A stretch of DNA of 51,209 nucleotides from Escherichia phage BubbaBully: the sequence record OR896831.1, one strand, 5' to 3'. Made by a program: the position numbers and the translations under genes. Below are positions 32,316 through 51,207 of the stretch, in pieces. Position 1 is the stretch's first letter; each line of letters begins with the position of its first letter. Under the pieces are notes generated by a model, which saw only the letters and a program-made list of their open reading frames with translations, searched no databases and was not told the origin of the DNA.

Positions 32316-33062
32316 ATGGCTAAAGACATTCTGGATAACTCAACAATCGACGGTATCGAGCAGGTTGATGAAATGGACTTTCACGAATTGCAGCACGGAA
32401 AATATTCAGATATAGCTCTGCGTTCGGGTGGTCATTACCAGGCCGTGAAGCCTTGCCAGTATTACAAGGTTACAGGCAACCGCTATGCTGGGAGCAAAAC
32501 TCCAGATGTTGTCCGTGACCTTTGGGCTACACCTCGCGATGTTGTTGCGTACATGGAGGAGCGCTACGGAAAATATGACCTTGACGCAGCAGCCAGCGAG
32601 GATAATAAGGTATGTGACAAATTCTACAGCAAGGAAACAAACTGCTTAAAGCGCTGGTGGGGAAGTAAAAAGCACGTATGGTTGAATCCTCCATACAGCA
32701 ATCCAGATCCGTTTGTGCTAAAGGCAATTGAGCAGATGGAGCACGATAATCAGATCGATATCTTGCTTGCAGCCGACAACTCAACAGCATGGTTTAGCGA
32801 CGCGCAGAAACACGCGGCGGAAATTATCTGGATCACTGGCGAAACCTGGAAAGATGAAGATGGGCGCGAGTATTCGCGAACCGGACGCCTAGCGTTTATT
32901 TCCGGTCTGACAGGTGAGCCAGTTAGCGGCAACAATAAAGGCAGCGTCATTTTCGTCATGCGCAAATTGAAAGAGGGCGAAACGCAACAAACTCACTACG
33001 TGAAAATCAGCGATATTTGCCCGTCAGTTAAAAACAAACGAGCCAAAGCAAGGAGCTTTTAA
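32316..33062 (+). CDS. dam: DNA N6-adenine methyltransferase (Dam-like)
   Basis: 248 aa with NPPY motif (WLNPPYS) characteristic of N6-adenine methyltransferases. Confidence 0.75.
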   Translation: MAKDILDNSTIDGIEQVDEMDFHELQHGKYSDIALRSGGHYQAVKPCQYYKVTGNRYAGSKTPDVVRDLWATPRDVVAYMEERYGKYDLDAAASEDNKVCDKFYSKETNCLKRWWGSKKHVWLNPPYSNPDPFVLKAIEQMEHDNQIDILLAADNSTAWFSDAQKHAAEIIWITGETWKDEDGREYSRTGRLAFISGLTGEPVSGNNKGSVIFVMRKLKEGETQQTHYVKISDICPSVKNKRAKARSF

Positions 33063-34038: not shown

Positions 34039-35157
34039 ATGATTCAGAAAATGACAGACCAGCAGTTTAAAGAAGCACGAGCAGAGGGCAAAACCTACAA
34101 GCAGATCGCGGAGGAGTTCGGCTTGAATGTTCGCACCGTTGAGCGCCGCGCGGCACGACTTGCCCGCCAAGGTGAAACTAACACGAAAGGCGCACCAGGT
34201 TTTGCGGTTGTTCGTGAGTCAGTCCTGACCCGCGCAAACGGCGAAGAAGTGATGCGCTGGACTATCACCAACAAAGATAAAGAGCAGTTGGAAGCGCTCA
34301 TGCAAGCCGCGATGGAGGCATTCGCTGAGGAAGTGCCACGCCTTGAGCCTCAGCCGGAAAGCCACAAAGACTACAGCGAAAGCCTTGCGCTATATCCGAT
34401 CTTTGATATGCACATTGGTGCAATGGCTCATAAGCACGAGTGCGGCGAGAATTGGGACACGGCAACCGCCGAGAAGGTCATGAATGACTTCTTTGATTAT
34501 GCTGTAGAGTGTGCGCCAAACAGCGAAAAGGCTGTGCTCCTGATTGGTGGCGATATGCTTCACAGTGACGGCCTTGAGGCTGTAACACCTGCTAGCGGTC
34601 ACGTTCTTGATCAGGATAGCCGCTATGCCAAACTGGTTTATGTCGCAATCCGAGCTACTCGTCGCGCTATCTCCTTGATGTTGACCAAACACAAAGAGAT
34701 TGAGGTTCAGGTTATCGAGGGCAATCATGACCAGTCAGGGATGATCTGGCTACGCGCAGCAATGGCGGCGGCATACGAGAACGAGCCACGCGTGACGGTT
34801 GATGTTTCTCCTCGCGTAGTGCATCACACGCAGTACGGAAAAACCTTCCTTGCTTATCACCACGGGCACACTGTGCGCAAGCCGGAGGCGTTGTTGATGA
34901 TGTGCGCGTCGGATTGGCGAGAGGACTTCGGGATCTCAAAATCAATGTATGCTCACGTTGGACATTGGCATCACCAGACCGTAACAGAAACCAGCCTGGG
35001 GATTGTTGAAGTTCACAGCACAATGGCGGCTAAAGATGCATATGCAGCTCGCGGAGGTTGGCGCTCTCGTCGTCGCGCGGCGGTTATCATCTACGACAAA
35101 GAGCACGGCGAGATCGGGCGCTTCATGTTCTACCCTGAAATGATGGAGTCAAAATAA
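34039..35157 (+). CDS. metallophosphoesterase (calcineurin-like) with N-terminal HTH-like region
   Basis: 372 aa; motifs DMH, GGDMLHSD, GNHD, HHGH; N-terminal KTYKQIAEEFGLNVRTVERR resembles an HTH. Confidence 0.65.
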   Translation: MIQKMTDQQFKEARAEGKTYKQIAEEFGLNVRTVERRAARLARQGETNTKGAPGFAVVRESVLTRANGEEVMRWTITNKDKEQLEALMQAAMEAFAEEVPRLEPQPESHKDYSESLALYPIFDMHIGAMAHKHECGENWDTATAEKVMNDFFDYAVECAPNSEKAVLLIGGDMLHSDGLEAVTPASGHVLDQDSRYAKLVYVAIRATRRAISLMLTKHKEIEVQVIEGNHDQSGMIWLRAAMAAAYENEPRVTVDVSPRVVHHTQYGKTFLAYHHGHTVRKPEALLMMCASDWREDFGISKSMYAHVGHWHHQTVTETSLGIVEVHSTMAAKDAYAARGGWRSRRRAAVIIYDKEHGEIGRFMFYPEMMESK

Positions 35158-39681: not shown

Positions 39682-40395
39682 TTATTTTGAATTAGCCAGC
39701 CATACAGCAATCGCCAGGCCGCGTGGAGTTAGTGAGCGAATCAGTTTTGTTCTCTCTGATTTGCCGCCTAATTTCTTCCAGCCTGGATTGTCGTTTCCTA
39801 CTGGATCAACTGGTAGCGGTTCAGGCATTACAAATCCGTTTCCCGTCCAAAGACATGTATTCTTATTGTATGCGTCGCTCGCCGGAATAATGTCAGGGAA
39901 GGCTGGGTGCGCCTCGTCTTTCAAATGAATGTAGCCGCCATAGTCGCACGGATGGAATTTGTGATCCGGCTTGCGCCATAGCGTTGACAGCTTGCCTACA
40001 GGGTTTTCGATCATGTACGGAGCGCCAAAATGATCAGCAATCTCCGCCGCAATCTTGCAGGTAGCTGCCGCTTTAACCTGGAAATCTGGATCGATCTCAG
40101 CTTTGCGCTTCCAGTGGCGCGAGCCTGAGTTTGCCAGGTCTGTACATGGAGGAAACGCCATAACAAAATCAGGCTTACCCCAAAGCAGGTTACATGCGCT
40201 CACCTTGAAATCGTCGTCAATCCATGCGTTAACATAGCGAATGTTGGGATGCGTTACGCGCACTGATTGGTACGAGCCGTGATCACCTTCATCGGCATTG
40301 AAACAGATAACCTTGTAACCAGCTTTAGCCCACGGCAGCGCCGCGTAGCCGGAACCGTCGAACATTGAGAAAACAAGACCTTTGATGTTGTTCAT
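39682..40395 (-). CDS. compact C5-cytosine methyltransferase-like protein
   Basis: 237 aa; motif I-like FDGSGYAALPWAKAG, PC motif FPPCTDLANSG, ENV-like motif ENPVG; no obvious target-recognition domain. Confidence 0.5.
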   Translation of the reverse strand: MNNIKGLVFSMFDGSGYAALPWAKAGYKVICFNADEGDHGSYQSVRVTHPNIRYVNAWIDDDFKVSACNLLWGKPDFVMAFPPCTDLANSGSRHWKRKAEIDPDFQVKAAATCKIAAEIADHFGAPYMIENPVGKLSTLWRKPDHKFHPCDYGGYIHLKDEAHPAFPDIIPASDAYNKNTCLWTGNGFVMPEPLPVDPVGNDNPGWKKLGGKSERTKLIRSLTPRGLAIAVWLANSK

Positions 40396-40405
40396 TTCTT
40401 AATCC

Positions 40406-40630
40406 TCAGAATGGGAAGCAACGATTGCAAGCTGGATCAAATTCACAGCCGCAGTCATTCACAATCATTGTTGGATCAGCAAACGCCGCGCCGCTCTCCA
40501 TATCCATATCCATATCGCCAAGCGCCTCGTCAAGCGTGCGCAGTTTATAAGCAACCTCAAGCGCTGCCTCTTTGTTCAGTCCAGCAGCTTCCGCCTCTTG
40601 CAGACGGGCAAAGAAACCATCTTGTGACAC
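40406..40630 (-). CDS. small acidic protein with C-terminal Cys cluster
   Basis: 74 aa ending NDCGCEFDPACNRCFPF. Confidence 0.45.
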   Translation of the reverse strand: MSQDGFFARLQEAEAAGLNKEAALEVAYKLRTLDEALGDMDMDMESGAAFADPTMIVNDCGCEFDPACNRCFPF

Positions 40631-40684
40631 AATTCACTCCTTTAAAACTGGCGGCGCAATTGCCGCCTTTAAACCAATCAGGGG

Positions 40685-40915
40685 TTACCAAGCTTTCCAC
40701 GTTTCGATATACATCGAATTTTCATCCAGGAAATCGATCACATCCTGCTTGCTATACTGGCGCAGCGTGCAGCGCGGCGACGTTCCAACGGTATAGCAGC
40801 CTTTACCCTCGGTGATGGTCACTTGCTTGATTTTCTCACCTGGGATGTCGCACTTGATGATCACGCGGTGGTGGCTATCCAGGGTTTTCATGATGTTTTC
40901 GGTTTTGAGTTTCAT
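40685..40915 (-). CDS. hypothetical protein
   Basis: 76-aa ORF downstream of a box promoter. Confidence 0.5.
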   Translation of the reverse strand: MKLKTENIMKTLDSHHRVIIKCDIPGEKIKQVTITEGKGCYTVGTSPRCTLRQYSKQDVIDFLDENSMYIETWKAW

Positions 40916-40946
40916 ACGTTTGTCCTCGTTTGTTGTCGATGGCGCT

Positions 40947-40990
40947 ACTATACCAGGCCGCAGCGCCGGAGTTTTAACAAAAAGTGCTAT
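40947..40990 (-). promoter_or_regulatory. box promoter (box + 22 bp + TG-n-TATAGT in hairpin loop)
   Basis: Box 40972-40990; TATAGT at 40947-40952 within GGCGCT/AGCGCC hairpin. Confidence 0.55.
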
Positions 40991-41068
40991 CAGTTCCAGA
41001 ATGAGTGGCGGGGCGCACGTTTACCATCACCGCCGTAGTGGTCATTGGAAACAGCAATCATCCAGGCG

Positions 41069-41350
41069 TTAGCGAATATCAGCAGTCGCATAAATCACCC
41101 CTTTAATCTTCTTGATCTCGTCAACTAACTCTTGCTCGTTGTGAATCATGGCGGGTGAGCACTCCCAACAAGCTGATGGCAGTTTCTTGTTCTTGCCCTT
41201 AATCAGAAATCCGCCCATCAACTCCCAATTACAGATAAGGCGATCATCACGCACATCGTACAGGTTAAACAGATTGCGACGCTCGCCGCCAACGTAAATC
41301 TTCATTCCATTATTGCGGCAGAATCCGCGTAATTCTTTCGTAACTCGCAT
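41069..41350 (-). CDS. hypothetical Cys-containing protein
   Basis: 93-aa ORF with CxxC-like pairs. Confidence 0.5.
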   Translation of the reverse strand: MRVTKELRGFCRNNGMKIYVGGERRNLFNLYDVRDDRLICNWELMGGFLIKGKNKKLPSACWECSPAMIHNEQELVDEIKKIKGVIYATADIR

Positions 41351-41544
41351 TATTCACTCTCCAGTACAGTAACAGGATCCAGGCGCTCCAGCACAACTTT
41401 GAAGTCGGCAAAGAATGTCGGCCTACGTTCGGTTAACTCCGTATAGGTGTCAGTCGCCAGCGTTGCGCGATCACCTTCATAGCACACCACACGCTTTCCG
41501 TTCTCGCGGCTGATTGCCACCACGCGATATGTGTTTTTGGTCAT
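41350..41544 (-). CDS. hypothetical protein
   Basis: 64-aa ORF, TAATG coupling to the downstream gene. Confidence 0.45.
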   Translation of the reverse strand: MTKNTYRVVAISRENGKRVVCYEGDRATLATDTYTELTERRPTFFADFKVVLERLDPVTVLESE

Positions 41545-41562
41545 GCGTTACCTCCTGGTTGG

Positions 41563-41841
41563 TTAAAAGCATTGAGGGCAAGAGCTTGCGATAAACTTGA
41601 TCACATTGCGCAGTTGGCGCTCGTCAAAGATTGTCGCTGGCAATTCCTCTTTCACTTCCTGGCGCAGATAAACGTTGCCGTGCCATGTGAGCTTGTCGTG
41701 TTCAATGCGATAGCTGCACATCCATTCACAATCGTTGTCAGCCTCCCAAATGCAAAGAGCGGTGTAGTCGCCCAAGTCCTCAACGGTCAATTCAATGCCG
41801 CGTTTCTTTGCCATGTTGAAAGTGGTCTTGCTGATGTTCAT
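41563..41841 (-). CDS. hypothetical Cys-rich protein
   Basis: Start set at ATG 41841 (GAGGAA RBS); first gene of the leftward accessory block. Confidence 0.5.
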   Translation of the reverse strand: MNISKTTFNMAKKRGIELTVEDLGDYTALCIWEADNDCEWMCSYRIEHDKLTWHGNVYLRQEVKEELPATIFDERQLRNVIKFIASSCPQCF

Positions 41842-41872
41842 AGTAAATTCCTCAGTTCGTTTCGATGAATGC

Positions 41873-41916
41873 ATTATGCCGAAATCAGATCAGTCTGTTT
41901 TAGCAAAAAGTGCTAT
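41873..41916 (-). promoter_or_regulatory. box promoter (box + 22 bp + CATAAT) driving the leftward accessory block
   Basis: Box 41898-41916; -10 at 41873-41878; CA-rich leader. Confidence 0.55.
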
Positions 41917-41994
41917 TTAATCGGTAGTCAGTGATTTTGATGATTGCTTGACCAGTTTTGTAAGGTTGTTTTTGATGCCCGTCAACTTTTGTGT

Positions 41995-42035
41995 GATTGT
42001 GATGATTGTTGATTAGATTTGATTGGATTTGATTG
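41995..42035. repeat. iteron-like array of GATTG direct repeats
   Basis: GATTG at 41995, 42004, 42021, 42031 and GATTA at 42011, spaced 7-10 bp, in the AT-rich divergent region. Confidence 0.5.
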
Positions 42036-42503
42036 TGGGAATCAGCATGGCCTGACGATGCCGTTTTTGCGCTCTCTAAAACTCCACTCTGTTATCTTCT
42101 GTTTACAATCGTTTCCTCTTGTTACCAAAAGTACGGTGGCGTAGTTTGTTCGCGTTTTTCGCGTGGCAGAAACAAAAAAAAACTTTTAATCTCCCTATAA
42201 ACAACTAATAAAATCAATAGTTTATTTTATATATATTATATTTGTTTTCACTACGTTATACTTGTTCCATATGGTATAGGGTGGTTATGGGATTTTATTA
42301 TTGGTGGTATTGGTTAATTTATAGGCATGTTCCGCTCAGGATGTTTACGATTCATCATTTCGTTGTGGTTGCTTTGGGTGACATATACATATTCATTATG
42401 GCCTCCGAAAAAACTGTAACGGCTGTAACATGCAAAAAACAGAATTTATCATCATGTAAATCAACAACTTACGACAAATTTTGTTTTTCGGCTCAAAAAA
42501 AAC

Positions 42504-42532
42504 TTGTGGAAACCGATTGTAACATGCATAAT
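42504..42532 (+). promoter_or_regulatory. sigma70-like promoter (TTGTGG-17-CATAAT) for first rightward early genes
   Basis: Hexamers with 17-bp spacer and upstream A-tract; no box; CA-rich leader before ATG 42565. Confidence 0.45.
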
Positions 42533-42564
42533 GCACACCGAAATGAACAAACGGAGGTAAAACG

Positions 42565-42990
42565 ATGTCAGATCAATCATTTGGCGATCAATTGCGTGCA
42601 GCGGCACGAATGCTGGCGAGCGGCGAGCGTGACGAAATCATCATGACCGACTACCAGTTACAGCAAGCGTCGGGAAAGGAGAAAATCAACCCAAGCCATA
42701 TCCGTACAACTATGGCGCGAGAGGTTCGCACCTTGGGAGCTATCAGCGTGAAGCGAATCACGGATCCGGTTGGATACGTTTGCACGTTCAACCCTGACCC
42801 AAAGAAACGAGCGATTGCCAGCGACGAGCTACCAGCAATCAAGGCGCGTGCGGCAAACAAGGCTCTAAAATCAATCGCTGAGGTGATGCCGAGCCTAACA
42901 GACCTGCAAGGCGAGCAGCTACAGGGAGCAATGATTGCAATTCAGCGCTACCAGGATTTAATAAAGAAGCAAATCAACGAGGAGGTTTAA
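42565..42990 (+). CDS. hypothetical early protein
   Basis: 141-aa first ORF of rightward early block; weak HTH-like segment. Confidence 0.5.
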   Translation: MSDQSFGDQLRAAARMLASGERDEIIMTDYQLQQASGKEKINPSHIRTTMAREVRTLGAISVKRITDPVGYVCTFNPDPKKRAIASDELPAIKARAANKALKSIAEVMPSLTDLQGEQLQGAMIAIQRYQDLIKKQINEEV

Positions 42991-42992
42991 TT

Positions 42993-43253
42993 ATGTGCAA
43001 CGAGAAAATCGATCAGCTTGTGGACGAAATCATTGAGACGCACGACCGCGCCGGATTCAACTCTATCTTTATGGTGTGCCCTGACGCGTGCGGCGTGACA
43101 GAAATCGAGCTTAAAGAAGCGGTTGAGCAGGTGGAGTCCGTGCTTCGAACCGATAACCCTGGTGACGAAATCTTTGCGGCCTTGACCGCTTGTGATGGTG
43201 GCGGAGTGTTTGCCCTTTCGTTTGTTAACGCAAACACGATCCTGACCATCTGA
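42993..43253 (+). CDS. small acidic early protein
   Basis: 86 aa, rich in Asp/Glu; second gene after the canonical early promoter. Confidence 0.5.
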   Translation: MCNEKIDQLVDEIIETHDRAGFNSIFMVCPDACGVTEIELKEAVEQVESVLRTDNPGDEIFAALTACDGGGVFALSFVNANTILTI

Positions 43254-43260
43254 TCGGTAA

Positions 43261-43304
43261 ATAGCACTTTTTGTTAAAAACGCCCCGCGCGAGTGGGGCA
43301 TAAT
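43261..43304 (+). promoter_or_regulatory. box promoter (box + hairpin + CATAAT)
   Basis: Box 43261-43279; stem GCCCC/GGGGC; -10 at 43299-43304. Confidence 0.55.
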
Positions 43305-43334
43305 GCACCCAACGAAACAACACGGAGAAATGAA

Positions 43335-43529
43335 ATGGCTATCAGATTCAACGCTGACTACCCAGGCTTTAAATCTGGCAAGACCTATCAGGCAAAATAT
43401 GCAGCGCACCCATTCTACGGCTACCTTGCAATCAAGGTTGTAGACGATGACGGCGACACGCGATACCTGGCGCTTAATCTGCTTGAGGACGGCTCAATCG
43501 TGGAGGTTGATGAAGATGAAGATCACTAA
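43335..43529 (+). CDS. small acidic protein
   Basis: Start at ATG 43335 after GGAGA RBS; 64 aa ending VEVDEDEDH. Confidence 0.45.
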   Translation: MAIRFNADYPGFKSGKTYQAKYAAHPFYGYLAIKVVDDDGDTRYLALNLLEDGSIVEVDEDEDH

Positions 43530-43866
43530 TCAAGCGCGAAACTATGCATTGAAGCACGGAGTGCATGTCTACGGACTGACAAACGAGCAAAGCCGCGCCC
43601 TGGTTTTCTACGATATCGCCAGCGGCACAAAGCTATGCACTTACAAGAGCTACAGCGATGATAACCCATTGCAGAAGTCGCTCAACTACAAGATGAAGCC
43701 GGAAACCTGGCAAGCGATGCCGGATGATATCCGCACGGCTCAGGGTGTGCAGAAAGCAATTGAGGCGATGGTTGCAACTGGCACGGCTCGACTGCTGGAC
43801 GAGGACGAGCTAGCGGAAGCACGCAACAAGATCCTCAAGCGGTCAACGGGAGTTGAGATCCTATGA
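43516..43866 (+). CDS. hypothetical protein
   Basis: Start at ATG 43516, 8 nt after GGAGG; 116 aa. Confidence 0.5.
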   Translation: MKITNQARNYALKHGVHVYGLTNEQSRALVFYDIASGTKLCTYKSYSDDNPLQKSLNYKMKPETWQAMPDDIRTAQGVQKAIEAMVATGTARLLDEDELAEARNKILKRSTGVEIL

Positions 43867-43958
43867 GCAACTTCCACAACGAGCACGTCATGCAGTGGTG
43901 GCGGCATCGCGTAAAGAATTTCGAACTGTATCGCCACGAGTGGAAATTTAGCGAATAG
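43863..43958 (+). CDS. small basic protein (31 aa), not in ORF track
   Basis: ATGA overlap with upstream stop; TAG stop lies inside the next box. Confidence 0.3.
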   Translation: MSNFHNEHVMQWWRHRVKNFELYRHEWKFSE

Positions 43959-43998
43959 CACGAATTGCTAAAAACTTGATCGGGTGTGCTGGTATAGT
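43955..43998 (+). promoter_or_regulatory. box promoter (box + 22 bp + TG-n-TATAGT in hairpin loop)
   Basis: Box 43955-43973; TATAGT 43993-43998 inside GGGTGT/ACACCC hairpin. Confidence 0.55.
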
Positions 43999-44030
43999 AC
44001 ACCCATCAACAACGAACCAAGGACTTAACA

Positions 44031-44198
44031 ATGAAATCTCGTAAATATCGCAACATCTTCAACAACCTGGCCTACTGGCTGGAGGACGGAGCTGTAATGG
44101 TTAGCAACGGCGAGCAAACAAAGAAATCGCTGTTAAGCGCAGAGGAGTTTTTCATTGCGGTCGCTCGTGACATTCTGGTGCTGATCGAGGAGGAATAA
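44031..44198 (+). CDS. small acidic protein (55 aa), not in ORF track
   Basis: ATG after CA-rich leader and AAGGA RBS; ends 3 nt before next ATG. Confidence 0.4.
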   Translation: MKSRKYRNIFNNLAYWLEDGAVMVSNGEQTKKSLLSAEEFFIAVARDILVLIEEE

Positions 44199-44201
44199 TA
44201 C

Positions 44202-44444
44202 ATGCTTTCAATTCGCAACTGGTTTATGCGTTTCATCGGAAAAGAGGTTGAGGCTTTCGGGATCAACATTCCGGCAAACTTCAAGCGCGCTTGCCCTGGA
44301 AACGCGGCTGGTGTGTATTGGGAAATGCCGGACGGCACATACTGGTTCACAATTTGCTCAGGATACAAGATGGAAGTAAGCCAGCGAGACTATGAGCGCG
44401 GAACATTCTTTAAAGCAATGCAAGAAATCGGGGAGGAGTTTTGA
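44202..44444 (+). CDS. hypothetical protein
   Basis: 80-aa ORF. Confidence 0.5.
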   Translation: MLSIRNWFMRFIGKEVEAFGINIPANFKRACPGNAAGVYWEMPDGTYWFTICSGYKMEVSQRDYERGTFFKAMQEIGEEF

Positions 44445-44611
44445 AGTTCTATCGCAACCCAACGATTCACGGACTGATTTACTTTATCAAGGACGGTAAA
44501 GCTATGTACTTTCCTGCTGGTTCGCCTTGGACTGAGGCTGAGGAATCAGGGCTAACTGCTCAGCAACTGCAACTAGGAATTATCTCAGGCGTATTTGTGG
44601 AGGCTAACTAA
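44441..44611 (+). CDS. possible small protein (TTG start at 44441 or ATG at 44504), not in ORF track
   Basis: Open frame fills the 166-bp gap and ends in TAATG overlap with the next gene; start codon uncertain. Confidence 0.25.
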   Translation: MKFYRNPTIHGLIYFIKDGKAMYFPAGSPWTEAEESGLTAQQLQLGIISGVFVEAN

Positions 44612-45147
44612 TGATTAAATTTGAGCTTTGGGGTCACACATACCATCTGCGCGGCACTTATGGTGTCGCAATTGTAGACCTGGACGGCACACTATCGGAC
44701 GGCACGCATCGCTTGCACTTGCTGCCAACGAAAGACCTGCACCTAACTGAAAGCTGGAGCGAGTTTAACAGGGCGGCGCAGAATGACGCGCCAATCCAGG
44801 ATACGATTGATATCGTCAACGCACTTTGGAAGGCGGGAATGGGCGTGGTTATCCTGACTGGTCGCAGTGACGAGGTTGAAACAGACACTATCCTTTGGCT
44901 AGACCGCCACAAGGTGAAATATGACTGGCTTATCATGCGCCGCTCCGAGGATAACCGCAAGGACACAGTTATCAAAGAAGAGGTGTTGCGTGCAATCGGT
45001 CTGCAGTACATTACGTGCGCCTTTGATGATTCGCCAAACGTGATCAAGCATTTCCGCAGCCTGGGGGTTACGACCTATCAGGTAACGGAATACGACAAGC
45101 CGCACGCTAGTTTGCAGAGTCACGGCGTGGAGGAGTTGAGCAAATGA
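44611..45147 (+). CDS. HAD-superfamily phosphatase (polynucleotide-kinase-phosphatase-like)
   Basis: 178 aa with DxDGT motif (VDLDGTL) near N-terminus. Confidence 0.6.
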   Translation: MIKFELWGHTYHLRGTYGVAIVDLDGTLSDGTHRLHLLPTKDLHLTESWSEFNRAAQNDAPIQDTIDIVNALWKAGMGVVILTGRSDEVETDTILWLDRHKVKYDWLIMRRSEDNRKDTVIKEEVLRAIGLQYITCAFDDSPNVIKHFRSLGVTTYQVTEYDKPHASLQSHGVEELSK

Positions 45148-45359
45148 TTATCACGCACAACGTAGAGCCGAGCGCAAACACCGCACAGGATATGATTGCT
45201 GGAATGCCGCCAAAATCGCACAGAATGGTGCGTGTGTGGGGATTTCAGGGCAATGTAAGCCAAACGCTCAAGGAAATTTTAGCCCTGCCAGAAGTCGATG
45301 CAGCGCTTGTGGGGGTGCATACAAATGAATATGTTTCTTTCCACATCGTGACAAAATAG
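45144..45359 (+). CDS. hypothetical protein
   Basis: 71-aa ORF; TAG stop inside the next box. Confidence 0.45.
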   Translation: MIITHNVEPSANTAQDMIAGMPPKSHRMVRVWGFQGNVSQTLKEILALPEVDAALVGVHTNEYVSFHIVTK

Positions 45360-45399
45360 CACGAATTGCTAAAACGCGCTCCGAGAGGGGCGCTATAAT
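45356..45399 (+). promoter_or_regulatory. box promoter (box + hairpin + TATAAT)
   Basis: Box 45356-45374; imperfect stem GCGCTCC/GGGGCGC; TATAAT 45394-45399. Confidence 0.55.
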
Positions 45400-45430
45400 G
45401 CACCCATACCAACCAACGAGGGAAAACAAA

Positions 45431-45664
45431 ATGCGAGCAAAGATTAAAGCAACTGGCGGCTACACCGGAATGAAAAACGTCAAGCTTCCGCTGACACTAA
45501 AAGCGGTTTCCAGTGGTTATGGCACGGTCGATGTTAGCCTTGCCGAGTTGATTTATCACGGCTACGACTTTGCAGCAGGACAGGCAGACGAGATCCCGGA
45601 CTGCGAATTTAATTCTCAGACACTGACTTTCATTATTGGCGTAGAGGCGGAGATTGTAGAATGA
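45431..45664 (+). CDS. hypothetical protein
   Basis: Start at ATG 45431 after GAGGGAAAA RBS; 77 aa. Confidence 0.45.
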   Translation: MRAKIKATGGYTGMKNVKLPLTLKAVSSGYGTVDVSLAELIYHGYDFAAGQADEIPDCEFNSQTLTFIIGVEAEIVE

Positions 45665-45894
45665 AATATCAGATCTTTAAGGCAGTAGACAAAATCGACG
45701 GCGAGCTTTCACTTTTCCTCTTTGACGAGGAGAACGGCTACACAGTCATTGACTATTCACCGGAAATGATGGGGCGCTTGATTAGTGATATCAAGGCTGG
45801 CGGCAGTTGCCACTGGAGCGATAACGAAGGAGAAACTTCGCGCCGTGATGATATGCTTGATGCGGTCTTAATGTGTGAGTTCGAGGCTGAATAA
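45661..45894 (+). CDS. small acidic protein
   Basis: 77-aa ORF, ATGA overlap. Confidence 0.45.
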   Translation: MKYQIFKAVDKIDGELSLFLFDEENGYTVIDYSPEMMGRLISDIKAGGSCHWSDNEGETSRRDDMLDAVLMCEFEAE

Positions 45895-46085
45895 TGAAGT
45901 GCATCCGGTCAACATACGATCTATTCAAGGCGGGTGAAAGTTACCCGCTCATTGAGAAAGGCCAGGTCGGGCGGTTCACGGTATACGAATACACCGACGT
46001 GCAAGGTTGGGTTTATACTTTCGGACTCGACGAGAACGGAGAGAACGAAACAGACGGCAATTTCATGAAGTTTACAAAGGAGTAA
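45894..46085 (+). CDS. hypothetical protein
   Basis: 63-aa ORF, TAATG overlap. Confidence 0.45.
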   Translation: MKCIRSTYDLFKAGESYPLIEKGQVGRFTVYEYTDVQGWVYTFGLDENGENETDGNFMKFTKE

Positions 46086-46146
46086 CACAATGATTGAGAA
46101 CAAATTCAGCGGCAACAAAGACGACGCAGAGATCACAGAGTTCTAA

Positions 46147-46191
46147 ATAGCACTTTTTGCTAAAGACTTTCCGCAAGGCCATTGGTATAGT
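46147..46191 (+). promoter_or_regulatory. box promoter (box + 23 bp + TG-n-TATAGT in hairpin loop)
   Basis: Box ATAGCACTTTTTGCTAAAG 46147-46165; TATAGT 46186-46191 within AAGGCCA/TGGCCTT hairpin. Confidence 0.55.
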
Positions 46192-46229
46192 GGCCTTATT
46201 GAAAGCAACCACGCAAACAGGAGATAAAA

Positions 46230-46385
46230 ATGCGTAACTTTGAGAAAATCCGCACCAACAAAGACCGCCGCGCCGCTGGTGAGATTGTGGACTCACACCG
46301 TCGCCGCAAGAAAACTCAAAAACGCGGTAGTGCGGCAAAGCGCATGGATTGGGATCAACTTCAAACTAACTACAGGTCTAAATAA
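46230..46385 (+). CDS. small basic protein (51 aa), not in ORF track
   Basis: ATG after CAGGAGA RBS; Arg/Lys-rich; TAATG overlap with next gene. Confidence 0.4.
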   Translation: MRNFEKIRTNKDRRAAGEIVDSHRRRKKTQKRGSAAKRMDWDQLQTNYRSK

Positions 46386-46573
46386 TGTTTACACTACGTG
46401 ACCACAGCGAATTGCAGGGCAAAACGGCGGAGTACCTCCGCCAACTTGCAGACGACATAGAGAGCGGTAAAGTGTGCGTTGACCGCATGACCATCGAATC
46501 ATCAATCGAATGGTTCAAGATCGAGAAGCGCGAAATCATCATTAACACAATGGAGGCAACTGACAATGAGTAA
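46385..46573 (+). CDS. hypothetical protein
   Basis: 62-aa ORF. Confidence 0.45.
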   Translation: MFTLRDHSELQGKTAEYLRQLADDIESGKVCVDRMTIESSIEWFKIEKREIIINTMEATDNE

Positions 46574-47135
46574 AAAGGTTATTATTCTCAACGCTCCACC
46601 AGGTGCAGGTAAAGACACCATCGGAAATCTGATTTGCAAGCACGCGCCGCGATACGTTGTTAAGCGCTCATTCAAAGAGCCGATGTTTAAGATCGCTAAG
46701 GCAATGCTGGGCGATTATCGTTTCGGCCTGTTTATGCAAGCGTATGAAGACAGGGAGCAGAAAGAAAAAGCGCAACCTTTCCTGAATGGTAAATCACCTC
46801 GCCAGTTTATGATCTGGATTAGCGAGGATGTGATAAAACCTCAGTTTGGGGATCAGTATTTCGGCGTAGTCATGGCTGAGGCGGTGCGAGATAGTCAAGT
46901 TCCGGTTGTTATCACTGACGGCGGTTTTCCTGATGAAGTCAAGCCACTGGTCAGTGCAGGGATTCAGGTAAACATTTGCCGCCTACATCGAGACGGATAC
47001 ACGTTTGATGGTGATAGCCGGAATTACCTAAACCTTGAGGGCTACCATCACCGAATCGTGACGCGAGATTACATTCTTGTGCATGGCGATCCGATGCATA
47101 CCGTAGACCATATTTGTGAGGATGTTCTCAAATGA
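46566..47135 (+). CDS. dNMP-kinase-like P-loop kinase
   Basis: 189 aa; N-terminus KKVIILNAPPGAGKDT resembles the T4 gp1 deoxynucleotide monophosphate kinase P-loop (recollection). Confidence 0.55.
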   Translation: MSKKVIILNAPPGAGKDTIGNLICKHAPRYVVKRSFKEPMFKIAKAMLGDYRFGLFMQAYEDREQKEKAQPFLNGKSPRQFMIWISEDVIKPQFGDQYFGVVMAEAVRDSQVPVVITDGGFPDEVKPLVSAGIQVNICRLHRDGYTFDGDSRNYLNLEGYHHRIVTRDYILVHGDPMHTVDHICEDVLK

Positions 47136-47235
47136 TATCAACGCCGCAAGATCCGAAAGAGCCTTTCAACGCGCACAAGGCGCTAATGGTTCTACTGACC
47201 ATCATGATAATCGGTTACACTGTAAGGGGTATTTT

Positions 47236-47433
47236 ATGGCTGGTAACACACTGAAAACTATCGGCGCAGTCCTGTTAATCGTTGGCGGCTCACTGCTTAC
47301 TGAGCCAGGTTTCTTTAACTCAGTAGGCACATTTGCGGTGTTGTGTGGCGGTCTTATCGGCGGCTACATGGACGGCAGGAGAGCTGGGCGGCGCGAGGCT
47401 TTCGGCGGTGAAGATAAAAATCCGATAAAATAG
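47236..47433 (+). CDS. small membrane protein
   Basis: Start at ATG 47236 (AAGGGG RBS) within track ORF 47116-47433; two hydrophobic segments. Confidence 0.4.
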   Translation: MAGNTLKTIGAVLLIVGGSLLTEPGFFNSVGTFAVLCGGLIGGYMDGRRAGRREAFGGEDKNPIK

Positions 47434-47473
47434 CACGAATTGCTAAAACTTCCGCGAGGGCATTTGGTATAGT
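47430..47473 (+). promoter_or_regulatory. box promoter (box + 22 bp + TG-n-TATAGT in hairpin loop)
   Basis: Box 47430-47448 overlapping TAG stop; TATAGT 47468-47473 within GAGGGCA/TGCCCTC hairpin. Confidence 0.55.
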
Positions 47474-47515
47474 GCCCTCATTGAAGCAAAGCAACCAATC
47501 AAAGGAGATAACGAA

Positions 47516-47794
47516 ATGGCTACTATCCGCAAACACCTTGTAAACGCATTCGAAAACGTAGGCAAGGAGTATGGCTGGGATGATGGACTGAAAACACCGT
47601 ACACGGCACGCCGCCAGGGATTCAACTCTTTGAGAGAATGGGCGCGTTGCATGGCTGCAAACTACATGCCTGAAAATCATATTCTCATGCCGGATTCGCT
47701 GCTAGAAATGATCGAAGATGCACAGCGAGCAGGTATTCCACTGACTCAACATGATTTCGACGCATACGCAGAGGAGGAAGTAAACGCATGGTGA
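47516..47794 (+). CDS. hypothetical protein
   Basis: 92-aa ORF with AAAGGAGA RBS. Confidence 0.5.
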   Translation: MATIRKHLVNAFENVGKEYGWDDGLKTPYTARRQGFNSLREWARCMAANYMPENHILMPDSLLEMIEDAQRAGIPLTQHDFDAYAEEEVNAW

Positions 47795-48000
47795 GCGACA
47801 AGCCGGAATCGGTCAAAATCCGCACTGATTATGACGGCTCGCCGTGGATTAAGGCCGGAAAGGTTTACGACGCAACGCTTGAGAAATCGGGCAAGTTTGC
47901 AGGGTGTTACAAAGCTGGTGGGGAATTGGGTTCCCCATTTTACACAAGGCTGAAAAATTCAGTTCACTTAAACGGTAAAGATTGGGAGATTGTAGAATGA
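47788..48000 (+). CDS. hypothetical protein
   Basis: 70-aa ORF. Confidence 0.45.
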   Translation: MVSDKPESVKIRTDYDGSPWIKAGKVYDATLEKSGKFAGCYKAGGELGSPFYTRLKNSVHLNGKDWEIVE

Positions 48001-48611
48001 AATATGTAAAACCAACGACAAGCGGTTTCGGTTACACGGCTGGCAAACTATATCAGATCCTGTTGACCTATGAGGGCGGTCAATTTGTTGTTAAGAACGA
48101 CAAAGGGGTTAATCAGATTATTCGCGGCGACGGCAAGCCGTCATTACGGTTAGAGCGTGGCGGAAAGTTTGAGATTGTGGATATTCCAGAACCTGGCGAG
48201 GCTCAAGAGTACGCAGTTGAAACAGCAAAAAAGACAAGCGAGGCTCTACGCGAGCACGTCAAAGGGATTGTGAAAGATTCTATTGTTAGCGCGGCGTTGC
48301 CTGGTGGCGTGCTTCATAAGGCAGTAAGCGAAAGCGATCACTTGCGAGCAGTGCGCCAAATCGCAGCAAACGCAACAGAGCTTGCAAGCGAGATTGCATC
48401 AGGTCGATATGATGCAAGTCTCTATATGAGACTTGAAAAGGCAGAACGCGAGGCGGAGCAGCACAAAGCGGATTGCATCAAAGCGGAAGCAATTGTTGAT
48501 CAGCTTTATGACATATTCCCGCAGGTGCGCAATCCAGAGCAATTGATTGCAGCAGTTCGCAGTTCGAAAATCTTTGCTGATGCGTTTTTGGAACTGCAAA
48601 AGGTTAAATAG
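47997..48611 (+). CDS. hypothetical protein
   Basis: Start at ATG 47997 overlapping upstream stop; 204 aa. Confidence 0.5.
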   Translation: MKYVKPTTSGFGYTAGKLYQILLTYEGGQFVVKNDKGVNQIIRGDGKPSLRLERGGKFEIVDIPEPGEAQEYAVETAKKTSEALREHVKGIVKDSIVSAALPGGVLHKAVSESDHLRAVRQIAANATELASEIASGRYDASLYMRLEKAEREAEQHKADCIKAEAIVDQLYDIFPQVRNPEQLIAAVRSSKIFADAFLELQKVK

Positions 48612-48651
48612 CACTTTTTGTTAAAGCTTCCGCGAGGACATTTGTTAAAGT
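48608..48651 (+). promoter_or_regulatory. box promoter (box + 22 bp + TAAAGT in hairpin loop)
   Basis: Box 48608-48626 overlapping TAG stop; TAAAGT 48646-48651 within GAGGACA/TGTCCTC hairpin. Confidence 0.5.
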
Positions 48652-48685
48652 GTCCTCATTGAAGCGAAACACGGAGATTTAGGAA

Positions 48686-48895
48686 ATGGCTGTATACACT
48701 GGCAAGATGTTTGAAAGCGAAAACCCGATTTACGGCGGCACTTATGAGCTAATCATTGATGAAGATCGCGTAATTCTGGCTGATGACTATAACCAAGAAT
48801 ATTACGAAGTAGAAGCCGATAAATGGGATGACGACGTTATGTTTCTTGTTGATAATAGCCGCATCAAGTTTTATGCAGTGGAGGAAGAAGAATGA
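48686..48895 (+). CDS. small highly acidic protein
   Basis: 69 aa, Asp/Glu-rich, ends VEEEE. Confidence 0.5.
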   Translation: MAVYTGKMFESENPIYGGTYELIIDEDRVILADDYNQEYYEVEADKWDDDVMFLVDNSRIKFYAVEEEE

Positions 48896-49143
48896 TCACA
48901 ATTAACCTATCAGAAGAACAAGCGAAATCATTGTTGCGCGGCCTGGGCTGGCGAATGGGTAGCGGTAGCGAGGCGGTTGTAAACATCAAAGAGGAAGTAG
49001 CAAGAGAGCTTTTTGCACAGCTTGAGCATAAACTGATGCCAGCCTCAACAAGCGCGGCGGAGCTTGCTGTGTGGCGGCATGAAAACGGCCTTAATGAAAT
49101 GGATGTTGAGAAGTGGAAGCGTAAAAACGAGGTGATGAAATGA
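48892..49143 (+). CDS. hypothetical protein
   Basis: 83-aa ORF, ATGA overlap. Confidence 0.45.
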   Translation: MITINLSEEQAKSLLRGLGWRMGSGSEAVVNIKEEVARELFAQLEHKLMPASTSAAELAVWRHENGLNEMDVEKWKRKNEVMK

Positions 49144-49478
49144 TTTATATTCATAGCTACGGTGTCGGCAAGTTTGGCAACAAACAGATCCGAAATATTC
49201 ACGACACGCTCGATGAAGCAATGGCACAGCAACGCGTTTTAGGTGGAGTGGTTAAGGCGTTTGAGTCAGTGGAAAACTTAGAAAGCGAATGGATGGAGCG
49301 CGAGCACATAAAGGATTTGATTGTTGATGAGGTGTCATGCCTGATTGACGATCTCACAACTGACGCGCCAGGCTCGCCGCGAAACTATGAGCATGGTTCG
49401 TCTCAGTGGGATAGCTGGAAGGTTAAAACGCTTAACAACCTCCGCAATATCCTTGATGGAAAATTTAACGAAATTTAA
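49140..49478 (+). CDS. hypothetical protein
   Basis: 112-aa ORF, ATGA overlap. Confidence 0.5.
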   Translation: MIYIHSYGVGKFGNKQIRNIHDTLDEAMAQQRVLGGVVKAFESVENLESEWMEREHIKDLIVDEVSCLIDDLTTDAPGSPRNYEHGSSQWDSWKVKTLNNLRNILDGKFNEI

Positions 49479-49516
49479 TAGTGTTTAAAGCGCCTCAGAG
49501 CGATTATAGGAGGCGC
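49478..49516 (+). promoter_or_regulatory. degenerate (internally deleted) box with hairpin carrying a TATAG element
   Basis: ATAG-TGTTTAAAG resembles the box with about 7 nt missing; stem GCGCCTC/GAGGCGC 49490-49516 with TTATAG in loop. Confidence 0.3.
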
Positions 49517-49537
49517 AAAAATCGGAGGTGCGATTGC

Positions 49538-49666
49538 ATGGATAACTACGAAAAACCGTCTCAGTGGTGCGCACGTAAGCAGGAGGAGGCACTTGAGCGC
49601 GGCGACCAGAAAGCAGCTTTAAACTATTTCCAGATGTTCCAACTTTGGCAGAGCAGAGGGCTATAA
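49538..49666 (+). CDS. small hypothetical protein (42 aa)
   Basis: Start at ATG 49538 after GGAGG RBS, inside alt-start track ORF 49481-49666. Confidence 0.3.
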   Translation: MDNYEKPSQWCARKQEEALERGDQKAALNYFQMFQLWQSRGL

Positions 49667-49667
49667 A

Positions 49668-49898
49668 ATGTTCGGATTGAATGAGGCAGAATTCAACATT
49701 GTAAAACGTGCGACAAAAGACTGCGTAAACGAGATCGCTGATCGCATTGAGCAGAAGGACGAGAAATATGATCACATCGCGGCTGGCATTATCTGCAAAC
49801 ACTATCAGCCAGTTAGCACTCTATTAACAAAAACGCAATTTATTTGGCTTGCCGGATACCTGAGAGGGCGCTGGGGAAAGAATTTTGACAGAGAATGA
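49668..49898 (+). CDS. hypothetical protein
   Basis: 76-aa ORF. Confidence 0.45.
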   Translation: MFGLNEAEFNIVKRATKDCVNEIADRIEQKDEKYDHIAAGIICKHYQPVSTLLTKTQFIWLAGYLRGRWGKNFDRE

Positions 49899-50040
49899 TT
49901 GACGTCATGCGCCTGATTGGTTAACCTAAACCTCGTAAACATAAGAGGCTCATTCGAGCAACGCGCCAGGCGATACTGGCAACCACAGCGCCGCGCTGGT
50001 TGTTCAACCGTAAGACGCGGCGTTTTTACAGGAGAAAGCA

Positions 50041-50208
50041 ATGAAACGATATCCAGAAGAAACAGCCAAAGTGACTATCATCGTGGAACGAAACGGCGTA
50101 AAGACTCGCTACAAAAAACGATTCAAGAAAGGCGAGGCAATGCTAGGCCGAATCTCTGATTTCATGATCAAGATTCAAGAGGATAAGCCAGATGAAATGG
50201 AAGGTTAA
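50041..50208 (+). CDS. small basic protein (55 aa), not in ORF track
   Basis: ATG after strong RBS CAGGAGAAAGCA (same 20-nt context as the ssb start); overlaps the next ORF start. Confidence 0.4.
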   Translation: MKRYPEETAKVTIIVERNGVKTRYKKRFKKGEAMLGRISDFMIKIQEDKPDEMEG

Positions 50209-50377
50209 GCTGACTATCAGGCGCATGGGGCGACAATGCCGCTCATGCAAGCAAGTTTTCGAATGCGAGGTTTCAGCGTCAAACGAGGTAGAGGCGGCGC
50301 AGTTTGCAAAAGAGCTTTCTGGTGCAGATCCAGAAACCCACAAGTTTTCAATTGATTATTTAAGGAGTTTATCATGA
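50192..50377 (+). CDS. hypothetical protein
   Basis: 61-aa ORF with GAGGA RBS. Confidence 0.4.
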   Translation: MKWKVKLTIRRMGRQCRSCKQVFECEVSASNEVEAAQFAKELSGADPETHKFSIDYLRSLS

Positions 50378-50607
50378 TCTTAGGCTTTGTTATTGGTTTC
50401 ATTGCCGCTATCGCAATGGTTATGGTTGTTGGCGGTGCAGCGCAGAAATACGCAATCAAAAATGGCTGGTACGCCTCCGCGATCTGGATTGAGAAAGAGA
50501 AGTGTTGGAAAGTGCGCGGTCGATTCCTCAGTGTGGCATCAAGGATTCATGCTGGCATCCTTGAAGAATACCGCTCAGGACGGAAAACCGTCAAATACGT
50601 AGATTAA
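50374..50607 (+). CDS. small membrane protein
   Basis: 77 aa with N-terminal hydrophobic helix. Confidence 0.45.
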   Translation: MILGFVIGFIAAIAMVMVVGGAAQKYAIKNGWYASAIWIEKEKCWKVRGRFLSVASRIHAGILEEYRSGRKTVKYVD

Positions 50608-50613
50608 CAGAAG

Positions 50614-50650
50614 CCCCGCGTTTGCGGGGTTTTTTTGTGCCTGTTATAAT
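50614..50650 (+). promoter_or_regulatory. terminator-promoter fusion unit (hairpin + T7 + TTGCGG-17-TG-n-TATAAT)
   Basis: CCCCGC-gttt-GCGGGG stem; -35 TTGCGG 50622-50627; extended -10 50642-50650; upstream of putative TerS. Confidence 0.5.
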
Positions 50651-50676
50651 TGGCCTCCAACAAGAGGAGGTTAACC

Positions 50677-51207
50677 ATGAGCAGAGAAGAAAAGCAAAAG
50701 CCATTCACGGCTTACAACTTTAAGAAACTATATAACAAGCAGTATGGCGATATCGCCACGCTAGGAAAGCAACACCGATACACGCCGGAGCAGGTTTTTA
50801 ACCTTGCCGTCAAATACTTTGAGTGGGCGGAGTCCAACGCACTAAAGGCGGCTGAATCTTCATCGTTCCAGGGGCGCACGTACCAGGACGAGGTAAACAA
50901 GCCGCGCGTTTTCACTTTCAACGGTCTGCGCCTGTTTTGCGGCTGGTCGCGATGCGCGATGGAGAAATGGAAGAAAGAGCCAGGTTTCTCCGAGGTTATG
51001 GAGTTTATCGAGTCTGTGATCTATGAGCAGAAATTCCAGCTTGCGGCTAACGGCGTGATTAACGCTGCATTCATCGCCAAAGATTTAGGAGTTGACCAGC
51101 CGACGCAAATCAACGTTAGCGCAAACTCCGAGTCAAGCGCTGCAATCGCAGAGGTTGGAGCCGACGAGGTGCGCGAGGCGGTTCGTGATATTCTTGCGGA
51201 GATCTGA
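50677..51207 (+). CDS. putative terminase small subunit
   Basis: 176 aa from ATG 50677 (GAGGAGG RBS); ends 2 nt before window end and, circularised, sits directly upstream of terL; call by position only. Confidence 0.5.
   Translation: MSREEKQKPFTAYNFKKLYNKQYGDIATLGKQHRYTPEQVFNLAVKYFEWAESNALKAAESSSFQGRTYQDEVNKPRVFTFNGLRLFCGWSRCAMEKWKKEPGFSEVMEFIESVIYEQKFQLAANGVINAAFIAKDLGVDQPTQINVSANSESSAAIAEVGADEVREAVRDILAEI

Follow-up and report, generated by a model that had tools for sequence, protein, structure and literature searches.

The genome of Escherichia phage BubbaBully (Drexlerviridae) carries two small early genes that appear to be conserved and functionally coupled among T1-like phages, one for a PNKP-type HAD phosphatase and the other for a T4 gp1-type kinase, which together would turn breakdown products into phage DNA precursors. 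We put the probability of this reading at roughly one half. The window analysed is the whole stretch of 51,209 bp, which is the complete genome. On its plus strand lie the HAD ORF (44611–45147, 178 aa) and the P-loop ORF (46566–47135, 189 aa), separated by 1,418 bp. The earlier note had placed two separate ORFs about 1.4 kb apart, with a DxDGT and a GAGKDT motif; its coordinates are exact and both motifs can be read straight from the sequence. Because both ORFs match Pfam or PHROG profiles and have large sets of homologs, they are genuine genes rather than chance ORFs. NCBI holds exact matches to both proteins from Escherichia phage BubbaBully, WWD12664.1 (‘polynucleotide kinase’) for the HAD protein and WWD12671.1 (‘deoxynucleoside monophosphate kinase’) for the P-loop protein. 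Taken singly, the genes are unremarkable, with public annotations in hundreds of T1-like genomes; what is new here is their linkage.

Profile searches bore out both domain calls of the earlier note, assigning the HAD protein to the Pfam family HAD_PNKP (PF25109; E 8.6e-21; 75 bits, cut-off 27.6 bits; profile positions 4–140 of 143) and the kinase to phrog_139. The HAD protein has 441 homologs in the database, and the nearest folds are known PNKP phosphatase domains, its closest known systems being the C-terminal phosphatase domain of T4 Pnkp/PseT (PDB 1LTQ, 5UJ0) and Capnocytophaga Pnkp1 (4XRP). The catalytic roles of D165 and D167 in T4 Pnkp have been described, along with a residue set that includes S211, K258 and D278 (PMC3592404). 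Motif I of the BubbaBully protein, D23-L-D25-G-T27 (44677–44691, plus strand), aligns its nucleophile and acid/base aspartates with D165 and D167; across 21 homologs neither aspartate varies, and conservation of T27 is at least 90%. T4 S211 corresponds to T83 (at least 90% conserved), while K258 corresponds to the invariant K122 and the Mg2+ motif IV pair D277/D278 to the invariant D139/D140. Also invariant are R34, R85 and D118, the counterparts of T4 R176, R213 and D254, with the R34–R176 correspondence based on equal spacing from the nucleophile. A near-invariant segment of the family, H33-R-L-H-L-L-P-T…E-S-W…F-N, replaces a loop of T4 Pnkp.

In contrast to T4 Pnkp, the BubbaBully HAD polypeptide has no kinase domain. 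It covers only positions 163–292 of the 295 in phrog_505, which is the phosphatase half, and by this match the 178-aa polypeptide contains no Pnk-type P-loop 5'-kinase domain; a tblastn search with the T4 Pnk kinase domain gave no significant match anywhere in the window. Since the protein is, by its predicted domain content, phosphatase-only, the label ‘polynucleotide kinase’ given to it across Drexlerviridae is wrong, and a predicted stand-alone PNKP-type DxDxT 3'-phosphatase would describe it better. Two further differences from T4 Pnkp are that the genome has no RNA ligase and that the kinase recurrently paired with the family is of the gp1 type, not the Pnk type.

The P-loop protein matches phrog_139 with an E-value of 2.6e-46 over profile positions 81–243, and T4 gp1 matches the same profile with 1.8e-65 over positions 83–261; the protein's family amounts to 3,961 representative clusters. 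Its Walker A motif, G13-A-G-K16-D17-T18 (46602–46619, plus strand), has the GKDT variant in common with T4 gp1 (G13-K14-D15-T16). With hhalign, the family aligned to T4 gp1 at full length (176–177 columns, 93–95% probability). The earlier description of a dNMP-kinase-like N-terminus therefore stands as to the likeness and was too modest as to its extent, since the similarity spans the entire protein. Curated models miss the protein (no Pfam match with E <0.35; generic P-loop noise in NCBIfam) and no PDB chain was matched by its sequence or profile. Because these searches returned noise, the assignment to the (d)NMP kinase family is based on the PHROG match, on fold comparison and on hhalign. 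The fold has two domains, a P-loop core and a helical NMP-binding domain, and its viral neighbours in the fold search are annotated dNMP kinases.

The residues of the gp1 dNMP site were taken from Table 2 of PMC10653934: phosphate ligands K37, R68, R132 and R177, sugar contact M135, base contacts D175 and E181, and lid residues D204 and R197. Seven of these, R68, R132, M135, D175, E181, R197 and D204, align with R63, R79, M82, D118, E124, R142 and D150 of the P-loop protein; the family shows no variation at any of these but R142, where conservation is at least 90%. G15, K16, D17 and T18 are invariant as well; gp1 R11 is not conserved. Two of the four ligands of the dNMP phosphate are replaced where the sequences align (gp1 K37 by F41 and R177 by G120), and near these positions the family has an invariant K37 and R152. 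Overall, the protein has about 16% identity to T4 gp1 (PDB 1DEK/1DEL), is about 50 residues shorter and lacks two gp1 insertions. It also has a 3'-phosphatase as a linked or fused partner, which gp1 lacks.

The likeness to T4 Pnk is of a different kind. The hhalign score is about the same (E ~1e-7) for gp1 and for the T4 Pnk kinase domain, so the score itself was not relied on; what differs is the extent of confident alignment, which for T4 Pnk is the 27-residue P-loop only. After strand beta-2 the family has an invariant F36-K37-x-P39 where T4 Pnk, judged by alignment only, has its general-base motif R-D35-D-x-R38, and none of the PHROGs matched by the T4 Pnk kinase domain is shared with the P-loop protein. 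Against the HMMs of these families, hmmalign covered T4 gp1 and T4 Pnkp only in part, and hmmsearch domain alignments and hhalign were used instead. On this evidence the kinase is best classed as gp1-type rather than Pnk-type.

Co-occurrence of the two families was sampled in ±10 kb windows. Wherever a locus held both genes the HAD gene lay upstream on the same strand (67/67), and in 20 of the 67 the two were adjacent or overlapping. Adjacency recurs in three unrelated groups, namely Drexlerviridae, phage PY100 and the Aeromonas podovirus LAh1 (Autographiviridae). In another phage lineage the two are fused in one polypeptide (P0260 and P0266); these fusions are only 37% identical to each other, which points to an old fusion that has since been kept. 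In some Drexlerviridae, the two genes have moved together to another locus, behind a metallophosphoesterase gene. The suggestion that the two proteins act jointly is supported by conserved order and strand, by adjacency in unrelated phages and by a Rosetta-stone fusion.

The same comparison bears on the possibility that the jobs of the two proteins are unrelated, with the kinase boosting dNDP supply, the phosphatase serving some separate purpose, and their proximity only a by-product of gene order being kept where early genes are crowded. Compact phage genomes do keep gene order for non-functional reasons, and each gene occurs without the other: the HAD gene has no kinase in MA2, altidsur, SJ46 and TillyBobJoe, and the majority of the kinase family has no HAD gene. 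In the window, moreover, five unrelated small ORFs on the plus strand, matching only PHROGs of ‘unknown function’, separate the pair (45144–45359, 45398–45664, 45661–45894, 45894–46085 and 46385–46573). These are variable filler outside the module, because among relatives the two genes lie anywhere between −25 and 3,310 bp apart. Against unrelated jobs stand the retention of a single-polypeptide fusion down to 37% identity, the adjacency in Drexlerviridae, PY100 and LAh1, and the joint relocation behind the metallophosphoesterase gene, and we consider this explanation unlikely. Both genes lie in an early region rich in accessory genes. A scan of 40300–50700 for promoters and terminators gave counts at chance level (14 vs 13.6 and 14 vs 11.7), so an operon is not claimed.

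The metallophosphoesterase is a candidate third partner. In BubbaBully its gene lies about 9.5 kb upstream of the pair (34039–35157, plus strand) and encodes a 372-aa protein with an HTH and a calcineurin-type metallophosphoesterase, labelled ‘DNA repair exonuclease’ (phrog_704, E 5e-148). The metal signature DxH…GD…GNH(D/E)…H…GHxH is invariant among 14 homologs (D123/H125, G171/D172, G228/N229/H230, H275/H277, G308/H309/H311). The protein scores 15 bits against Pfam Metallophos, below the cut-off of 21.5, and no solved relative was found by PDB sequence or profile search. The gene is contiguous with the HAD and P-loop genes in seven loci, PY100 among them, and in locus L002 it comes immediately after the fused gene. 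In the KanT1 paper, too, the pair is said to stand often behind a ‘DNA repair exonuclease’ gene (PMC13164509). The metallophosphoesterase probably works with the pair in many phages.

In the reading that we prefer, the HAD protein, a kinase-less homolog of the T4 Pnkp phosphatase domain, would be a Mg2+-dependent DxDxT acyl-phosphatase that acts via an Asp23-phosphate intermediate and removes 3'-phosphates either from the ends of DNA or RNA or from nucleotides phosphorylated at the 3' position. The kinase would transfer the gamma-phosphate of ATP to the 5'-phosphate of a dNMP, yielding a dNDP. Family, fold, catalytic-residue conservation, linkage and fusion are all observed; the substrates, the direction of flux and the part of the metallophosphoesterase are inferred. 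On this view the two together would most likely lead from nucleic-acid breakdown products to dNDPs for phage DNA synthesis. The weakest link in this scheme is the phosphatase step, because 3'-phosphorylated ends or nucleotides have no obvious source; classical host-DNA degradation usually yields 5'-dNMPs. As a counterpoint, the fusion of a phosphatase with a kinase is the hallmark architecture of end-healing enzymes.

Two roles had been put forward in the earlier note, nucleotide metabolism and PNKP-type end healing. The former is favoured because the kinase is gp1-type, a ligase is absent, each gene is also found alone, and the neighbouring genes of the two families encode nucleases and nucleotide-pool enzymes. 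The podovirus module comes after genes for an exonuclease and endonuclease VII; the altidsur HAD gene has a gene for a MazG-like dATP/dGTP diphosphohydrolase behind it; and genes for DCD, an HD hydrolase and DNA polymerase A are neighbours of distant kinase relatives. The annotation of the nearest annotated relative lists no ligase, none was found among the unassigned large ORFs of the window, and T4 RnlA gave no tblastn match in the window. Published work points the same way: T1-like phages are known to break down host DNA and to use its nucleotides again, T1 and TLS doing so with enzymes not yet identified (PMC11447400), and the KanT1 paper suggests that the pair raises nucleotide supply (PMC13164509).

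End healing is the weaker reading, and we regard it as doubtful. It would make the pair a split polynucleotide kinase-phosphatase, in which the gp1-fold kinase, in place of a Pnk-type one, adds phosphate to 5'-OH ends and the HAD protein takes 3'-phosphates off. Breaks that host-defence nucleases make in DNA or RNA would thereby be healed and then sealed by host LigA, and the metallophosphoesterase could act as a nuclease or a 2',3'-cyclic phosphodiesterase. The HAD protein does appear to be a true PNKP-type phosphatase, the kinase sits next to the phosphatase or is joined to it, as in T4 and mammalian PNKP, and the order within the fusion, phosphatase N-terminal and kinase C-terminal, is that of mammalian PNKP. 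In addition, HAD relatives further removed are classical fusions of a Pnk kinase with a HAD domain, and upstream of one of them, at a distance of about 1.3 kb, stands an RNA ligase gene, so that a swap of kinase partner is conceivable. Against this, the kinase resembles T4 Pnk at the P-loop alone and has F36-K37-x-P39 in place of the general-base motif, and it keeps the gp1 nucleotide-site residues, including the sugar-contact Met and the base-contact Asp and Glu. The missing phage ligase and the four phages with a HAD gene and no kinase, together with the many kinases that have no HAD gene, argue in the same direction. More doubtful still is the bolder form of this idea, in which the gp1-fold kinases would be an unrecognised clade of 5'-OH polynucleotide kinases, forming with the PNKP-type phosphatase and the metallophosphoesterase a split, in one lineage fused, three-activity end-processing system that repairs defence-damaged phage DNA or RNA with the host ligase. 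Were polynucleotide ends indeed its substrate, the kinase would represent a new type among end-healing kinases.

A role in counter-defence appears very unlikely. The phosphatase, the kinase or both would then have the nucleotides of host immune signalling as substrates, or would refill dNTP pools that defence dNTPases or deaminases had drained. The early, accessory-gene-rich setting would suit such a role and a dNMP kinase could help to rebuild depleted pools, but PHROG, Pfam and PDB searches gave no homology to anti-defence proteins, supporting literature was not found, and refilling the pools falls under the conversion of breakdown products into DNA precursors that we favour, as a special case. 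Literature searches on dNMP kinases in relation to defence, and on how T1 degrades host DNA, returned nothing beyond PMC11447400. Two retron papers were set aside: in the retron Eco2 paper, PNK is a reagent only and Drexlerviridae are reported as unrestricted, and a 2020 preprint concerns T7 gp1.7.

Least probable is the earlier speculation that the pair supports the synthesis of a modified DNA base together with two methyltransferases: although T4 gp1 phosphorylates hydroxymethyl-dCMP (T4 record note), one methyltransferase is an ordinary Dam (PF05869, E 2e-61) and the other is weakly C5-methylase-like (E 0.34), both would act on polymerised DNA after replication, no hydroxymethylase, glycosyltransferase, deazaguanine or dNTPase genes were found in the genome, and PMC11447400, in the portions available, has T1 and TLS reusing host nucleotides with base modification unmentioned; the link was therefore rejected.

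The direct orthologs of the two proteins are Gp09 and Gp14 of TLS and the proteins of T1, KanT1 and other Drexlerviridae named ‘PNK’ and ‘dNMP kinase’, with like order and strand, and the names had already been given (PMC11447400, PMC13164509). Within the accessible text of those two papers, the ‘polynucleotide kinase’ label is taken at face value, and the phosphatase-only state, the fusions and the occurrence outside Drexlerviridae go unmentioned. Phosphatase, gp1-type kinase and metallophosphoesterase form a recurrent linked module in several phage families, fused in one lineage, and the module is therefore a concrete candidate for the enzymes of host-DNA recycling in T1 and TLS (PMC11447400).

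The proposed logic, in which phage nucleases take host DNA to dNMPs and a phage kinase takes these to dNDPs, is shared with the T7 nucleotide kinase gp1.7 and the gp3/gp6 pathway of host-DNA breakdown. T7 gp1.7, however, has no P-loop and is unrelated in sequence, and T7 has no PNKP-type phosphatase. The podovirus module adjoins gp3/gp6-like genes.

The HAD phosphatase gene (DxDGT) and P-loop kinase gene (GAGKDT), described in the earlier note as separate and about 1.4 kb apart, were confirmed as plus-strand ORFs at 44611-45147 (178 aa, DLDGT at residues 23-27) and 46566-47135 (189 aa, GAGKDT at residues 13-18). The 1,418 bp between them hold five small ORFs, whose PHROG matches are all of unknown function. 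The 51,209-bp window spans an entire genome, circularly permuted, of a Henuseptimavirus-like, T1-like siphovirus in Drexlerviridae (Tempevirinae). Between 44000 and 47500 it shares 85-88% identity with Klebsiella phage Samwise, Enterobacter phage AS5 and two BASEL phages, JohannLBurckhardt and IsaakIselin. It opens at the large terminase gene (TerL 1-1572; TerS 50650-51207). Both proteins are deposited as exact sequences, WWD12664.1 ('polynucleotide kinase', the HAD protein) and WWD12671.1 ('deoxynucleoside monophosphate kinase'), so the features are real and already known and annotated. What is added here is a corrected HAD annotation, together with evidence that the two genes are linked, that they can be fused and that they belong to a three-gene module.

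Profile searches bore out the phosphatase call and placed the HAD protein in Pfam HAD_PNKP (75 bits, cut-off 27.6) and phrog_415 (E 9e-65). Its sequence also matched phosphatase domains of known structure, those of Pnkp1 (4xrp) and T4 Pnk, and the pseT genes of T4-like phages are direct kin (∼29-33% identity, tblastn). R34, R85, D118 and D139 align to T4 R176, R213, D254 and D277, which we take to be important from the T4 mutagenesis literature. D23, D25, T83, K122 and D140 are the equivalents of the T4 catalytic residues D165 (nucleophile), D167 (acid/base), S211, K258 and D278 (PMC3592404). Across 21 homologs, eight of these nine do not vary and T83 is at least 90% conserved. The match to phrog_505, the T4-type Pnkp profile, is confined to the phosphatase half (positions 163-292 of 295), and no Pnk-type kinase domain was found in the window; judged by sequence, the protein is thus a kinase-less PNKP-type 3'-phosphatase, making 'polynucleotide kinase' a misnomer.

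The segment H-R-L-H-L-L-P-T…H-L-T-E-S-W…F-N (residues 33-53, window 44707-44772) is almost invariant family-wide, and may be a substrate-binding or partner-binding flap; despite this near-invariance, residues 26-48 have pLDDT below 50 in the AlphaFold model. Three T1-like HAD relatives (P0205, P0218 and P0230; 236-237 aa) carry a ∼55-aa C-terminal extension missing in the window protein, which could be a fusion with a downstream small ORF.

Sequence and profile searches of Pfam, NCBIfam and PDB with the P-loop protein returned no specific match. However, it matches phrog_139 (E 2.6e-46) over the same profile region as T4 gp1 (E 1.8e-65), the T4 deoxynucleoside monophosphate kinase. Its fold neighbours among viral proteins are mostly annotated dNMP kinases, and when a profile built from 125 diverse relatives was aligned with gp1, the alignment took in 176-177 columns (93-95% probability), gp1 having two insertions. 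Using the dNMP/ATP-site residues of the gp1 structure 1DEK listed in Table 2 of PMC10653934, we found conservation of the ATP-site residues G-K-D-T, the dNMP-phosphate ligands R68 and R132 (R63 and R79 in the P-loop protein), M135 (M82), which contacts the sugar, D175 and E181 (D118 and E124), which contact the base, and R197 and D204 (R142 and D150) of the lid, but not of K37 and R177 at the aligned positions. The T4 Pnk kinase domain gave overall scores similar to those of gp1, but aligned confidently at the P-loop only, and after strand beta-2 it has the general-base RDD motif where the P-loop family has an invariant F-K-x-P. We conclude that this is a putative gp1-type nucleotide-monophosphate kinase.

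The kinase family comprises 3,961 representative clusters, most members being stand-alone proteins of about 190 aa. Twelve of 267 relatives (P0095, P0098, P0105, P0106, P0109, P0115-P0119, P0241 and P0249) have an acidic tail, …D(D/E)(I)IPW, that resembles DDDIPF at the C-terminal tip of E. coli SSB and hints at a tether to replisome or SSB-binding proteins; the window protein, whose last residues are …CEDVLK, has no such tail. Among BFVD matches, A0A7S6HV70 (Escherichia phage JEP1, 518 aa) is annotated with a homing endonuclease of the DOD type, suggestive of an intein-like insertion, and A0A6J5RPH7 (297 aa) is either annotated as a nucleoside 2-deoxyribosyltransferase or fused to one. P0269, P0275 and P0278 (278-310 aa; loci L090 and L091) have a low-complexity, Ala/Arg/Ser/Glu-rich C-terminal extension of ∼100-120 aa in which no domain was detected, and kinase genes of this type lie close to DNA polymerase A and Dam genes.

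To assess linkage, family HMMs were run over all loci, among them 80 viral contigs on which a P-loop relative is encoded, each taken with 10-kb flanks. The HAD gene lies upstream of the P-loop gene on the same strand in every locus with both (67/67, a set that takes in the window and some separately obtained annotated phage records). The gap ranges from -25 to 3,310 bp, the genes being adjacent or overlapping in 20 of these loci, so the 1.4-kb spacing in the window represents variable filler. No HAD gene was found within 10 kb at the loci of more distant P-loop relatives (L070, L072-L084). Outside Drexlerviridae, the two are directly adjacent in Yersinia phage PY100 and Aeromonas podovirus LAh1 (kinase profile E 2e-67 and 4e-58, respectively). 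Moreover, the representative search yielded two single polypeptides, P0260 (403 aa) and P0266 (461 aa), with an N-terminal HAD_PNKP and a C-terminal P-loop kinase-family domain. Their common linker motif and identity of only 37% indicate one old, retained fusion. The contig encoding P0260 (60.7 kb) is phage-like but not T1-like, with genes for RdgC, NinH, Prim-Pol and Dam. Together, the fusion and the recurring adjacency speak for a coupling of the two activities. HAD segment 33-53 is retained in the fusion proteins too.

A third gene recurs beside the pair in several phage families. The metallophosphoesterase annotated 'DNA repair exonuclease' (34039-35157, plus strand; 372 aa, N-terminal HTH domain) has the invariant signature DxH/GD/GNH/H/GHxH, a complete binuclear set; sequence search found no solved relative. 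Homologs precede the HAD-kinase pair in PY100 (37% identity, E 3e-87) and the HAD gene in podovirus altidsur (43%, E 1e-99), seven loci have contiguous metallophosphoesterase-HAD-kinase trios, and in the fusion phage the fused gene is immediately followed by a member of this family. In MA2 and LAh1 the same position is taken by a different metallophosphoesterase family, phrog_221. Independently, the KanT1 paper places 'PNK' and 'dNMP kinase' most often after the 'DNA repair exonuclease' gene in Drexlerviridae without an SH3 gene, and puts forward enhanced nucleotide supply as their role (PMC13164509). In the podoviruses named here the module comes straight after exonuclease and endonuclease VII genes, and gene 40 of Escherichia phage altidsur (L093 6512-7096), directly after HAD, is a MazG-like dATP/dGTP diphosphohydrolase (PF18909, E 3e-33), contradicting its annotation as 'putative phosphodiesterase'.

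The interpretation in the earlier note holds up in part. Between the two roles offered there, nucleotide metabolism is favoured over ligation-directed end healing: the kinase's family, fold and retained nucleotide-site residues point to nucleotide supply, as do the nuclease and nucleotide-pool neighbours, the absence of a ligase and the ability of each gene to occur alone. The TLS re-annotation paper labels Gp09 and Gp14, which are orthologs of the pair, PNK and dNMP kinase, and states that T1 and TLS degrade host DNA and reuse its nucleotides through genes still unidentified (PMC11447400). Given that reuse, we propose, with a probability of about 0.5, that DNA would be converted into dNDPs by the joint action of the 3'-phosphatase, the dNMP kinase and the nuclease or phosphoesterase. 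What this scheme explains least well is why a 3'-phosphatase would be needed, since the products of classical DNA breakdown are 5'-dNMPs.

That the two proteins instead form an end-healing pair, a split Pnkp, appears unlikely, but this reading keeps some weight because a kinase fused to a phosphatase typifies end-healing enzymes. Among more distant HAD relatives, those of Streptomyces phage Muntaha and Xanthomonas phage BUDD are fusions of the classical T4 type, Pnk kinase with HAD. However, Muntaha has an RNA ligase gene ∼1.3 kb upstream of its fusion, whereas no RNA or DNA ligase was annotated in the closest annotated relative or found among the window's unassigned large ORFs, and T4 RnlA gave no tblastn match to the window. 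The kinase features also fit nucleotide supply instead, and SJ46 and TillyBobJoe have stand-alone HAD genes with no kinase alongside.

The suggested connection to the methyltransferases through modified bases found no support. The second methyltransferase (39682-40395, minus strand), called Dcm-like in a BASEL relative, gave only a weak match to the C-5 DNA methylase model of Pfam (E 0.34, below cut-off), which leaves it less securely assigned than the Dam at 32316-33062. Four ORFs of 169-233 aa (18975-19631, 23484-23993 and 24381-25082, minus strand; 47982-48611, plus strand) had no Pfam match with E ≤ 1e-3. Finally, a VRR-NUC nuclease-domain ORF (30867-31460, plus strand; E 1.9e-13) as listed runs ∼175 nt into the 3' end of the RadD-like helicase ORF (29041-31041), so its true start is probably further downstream.
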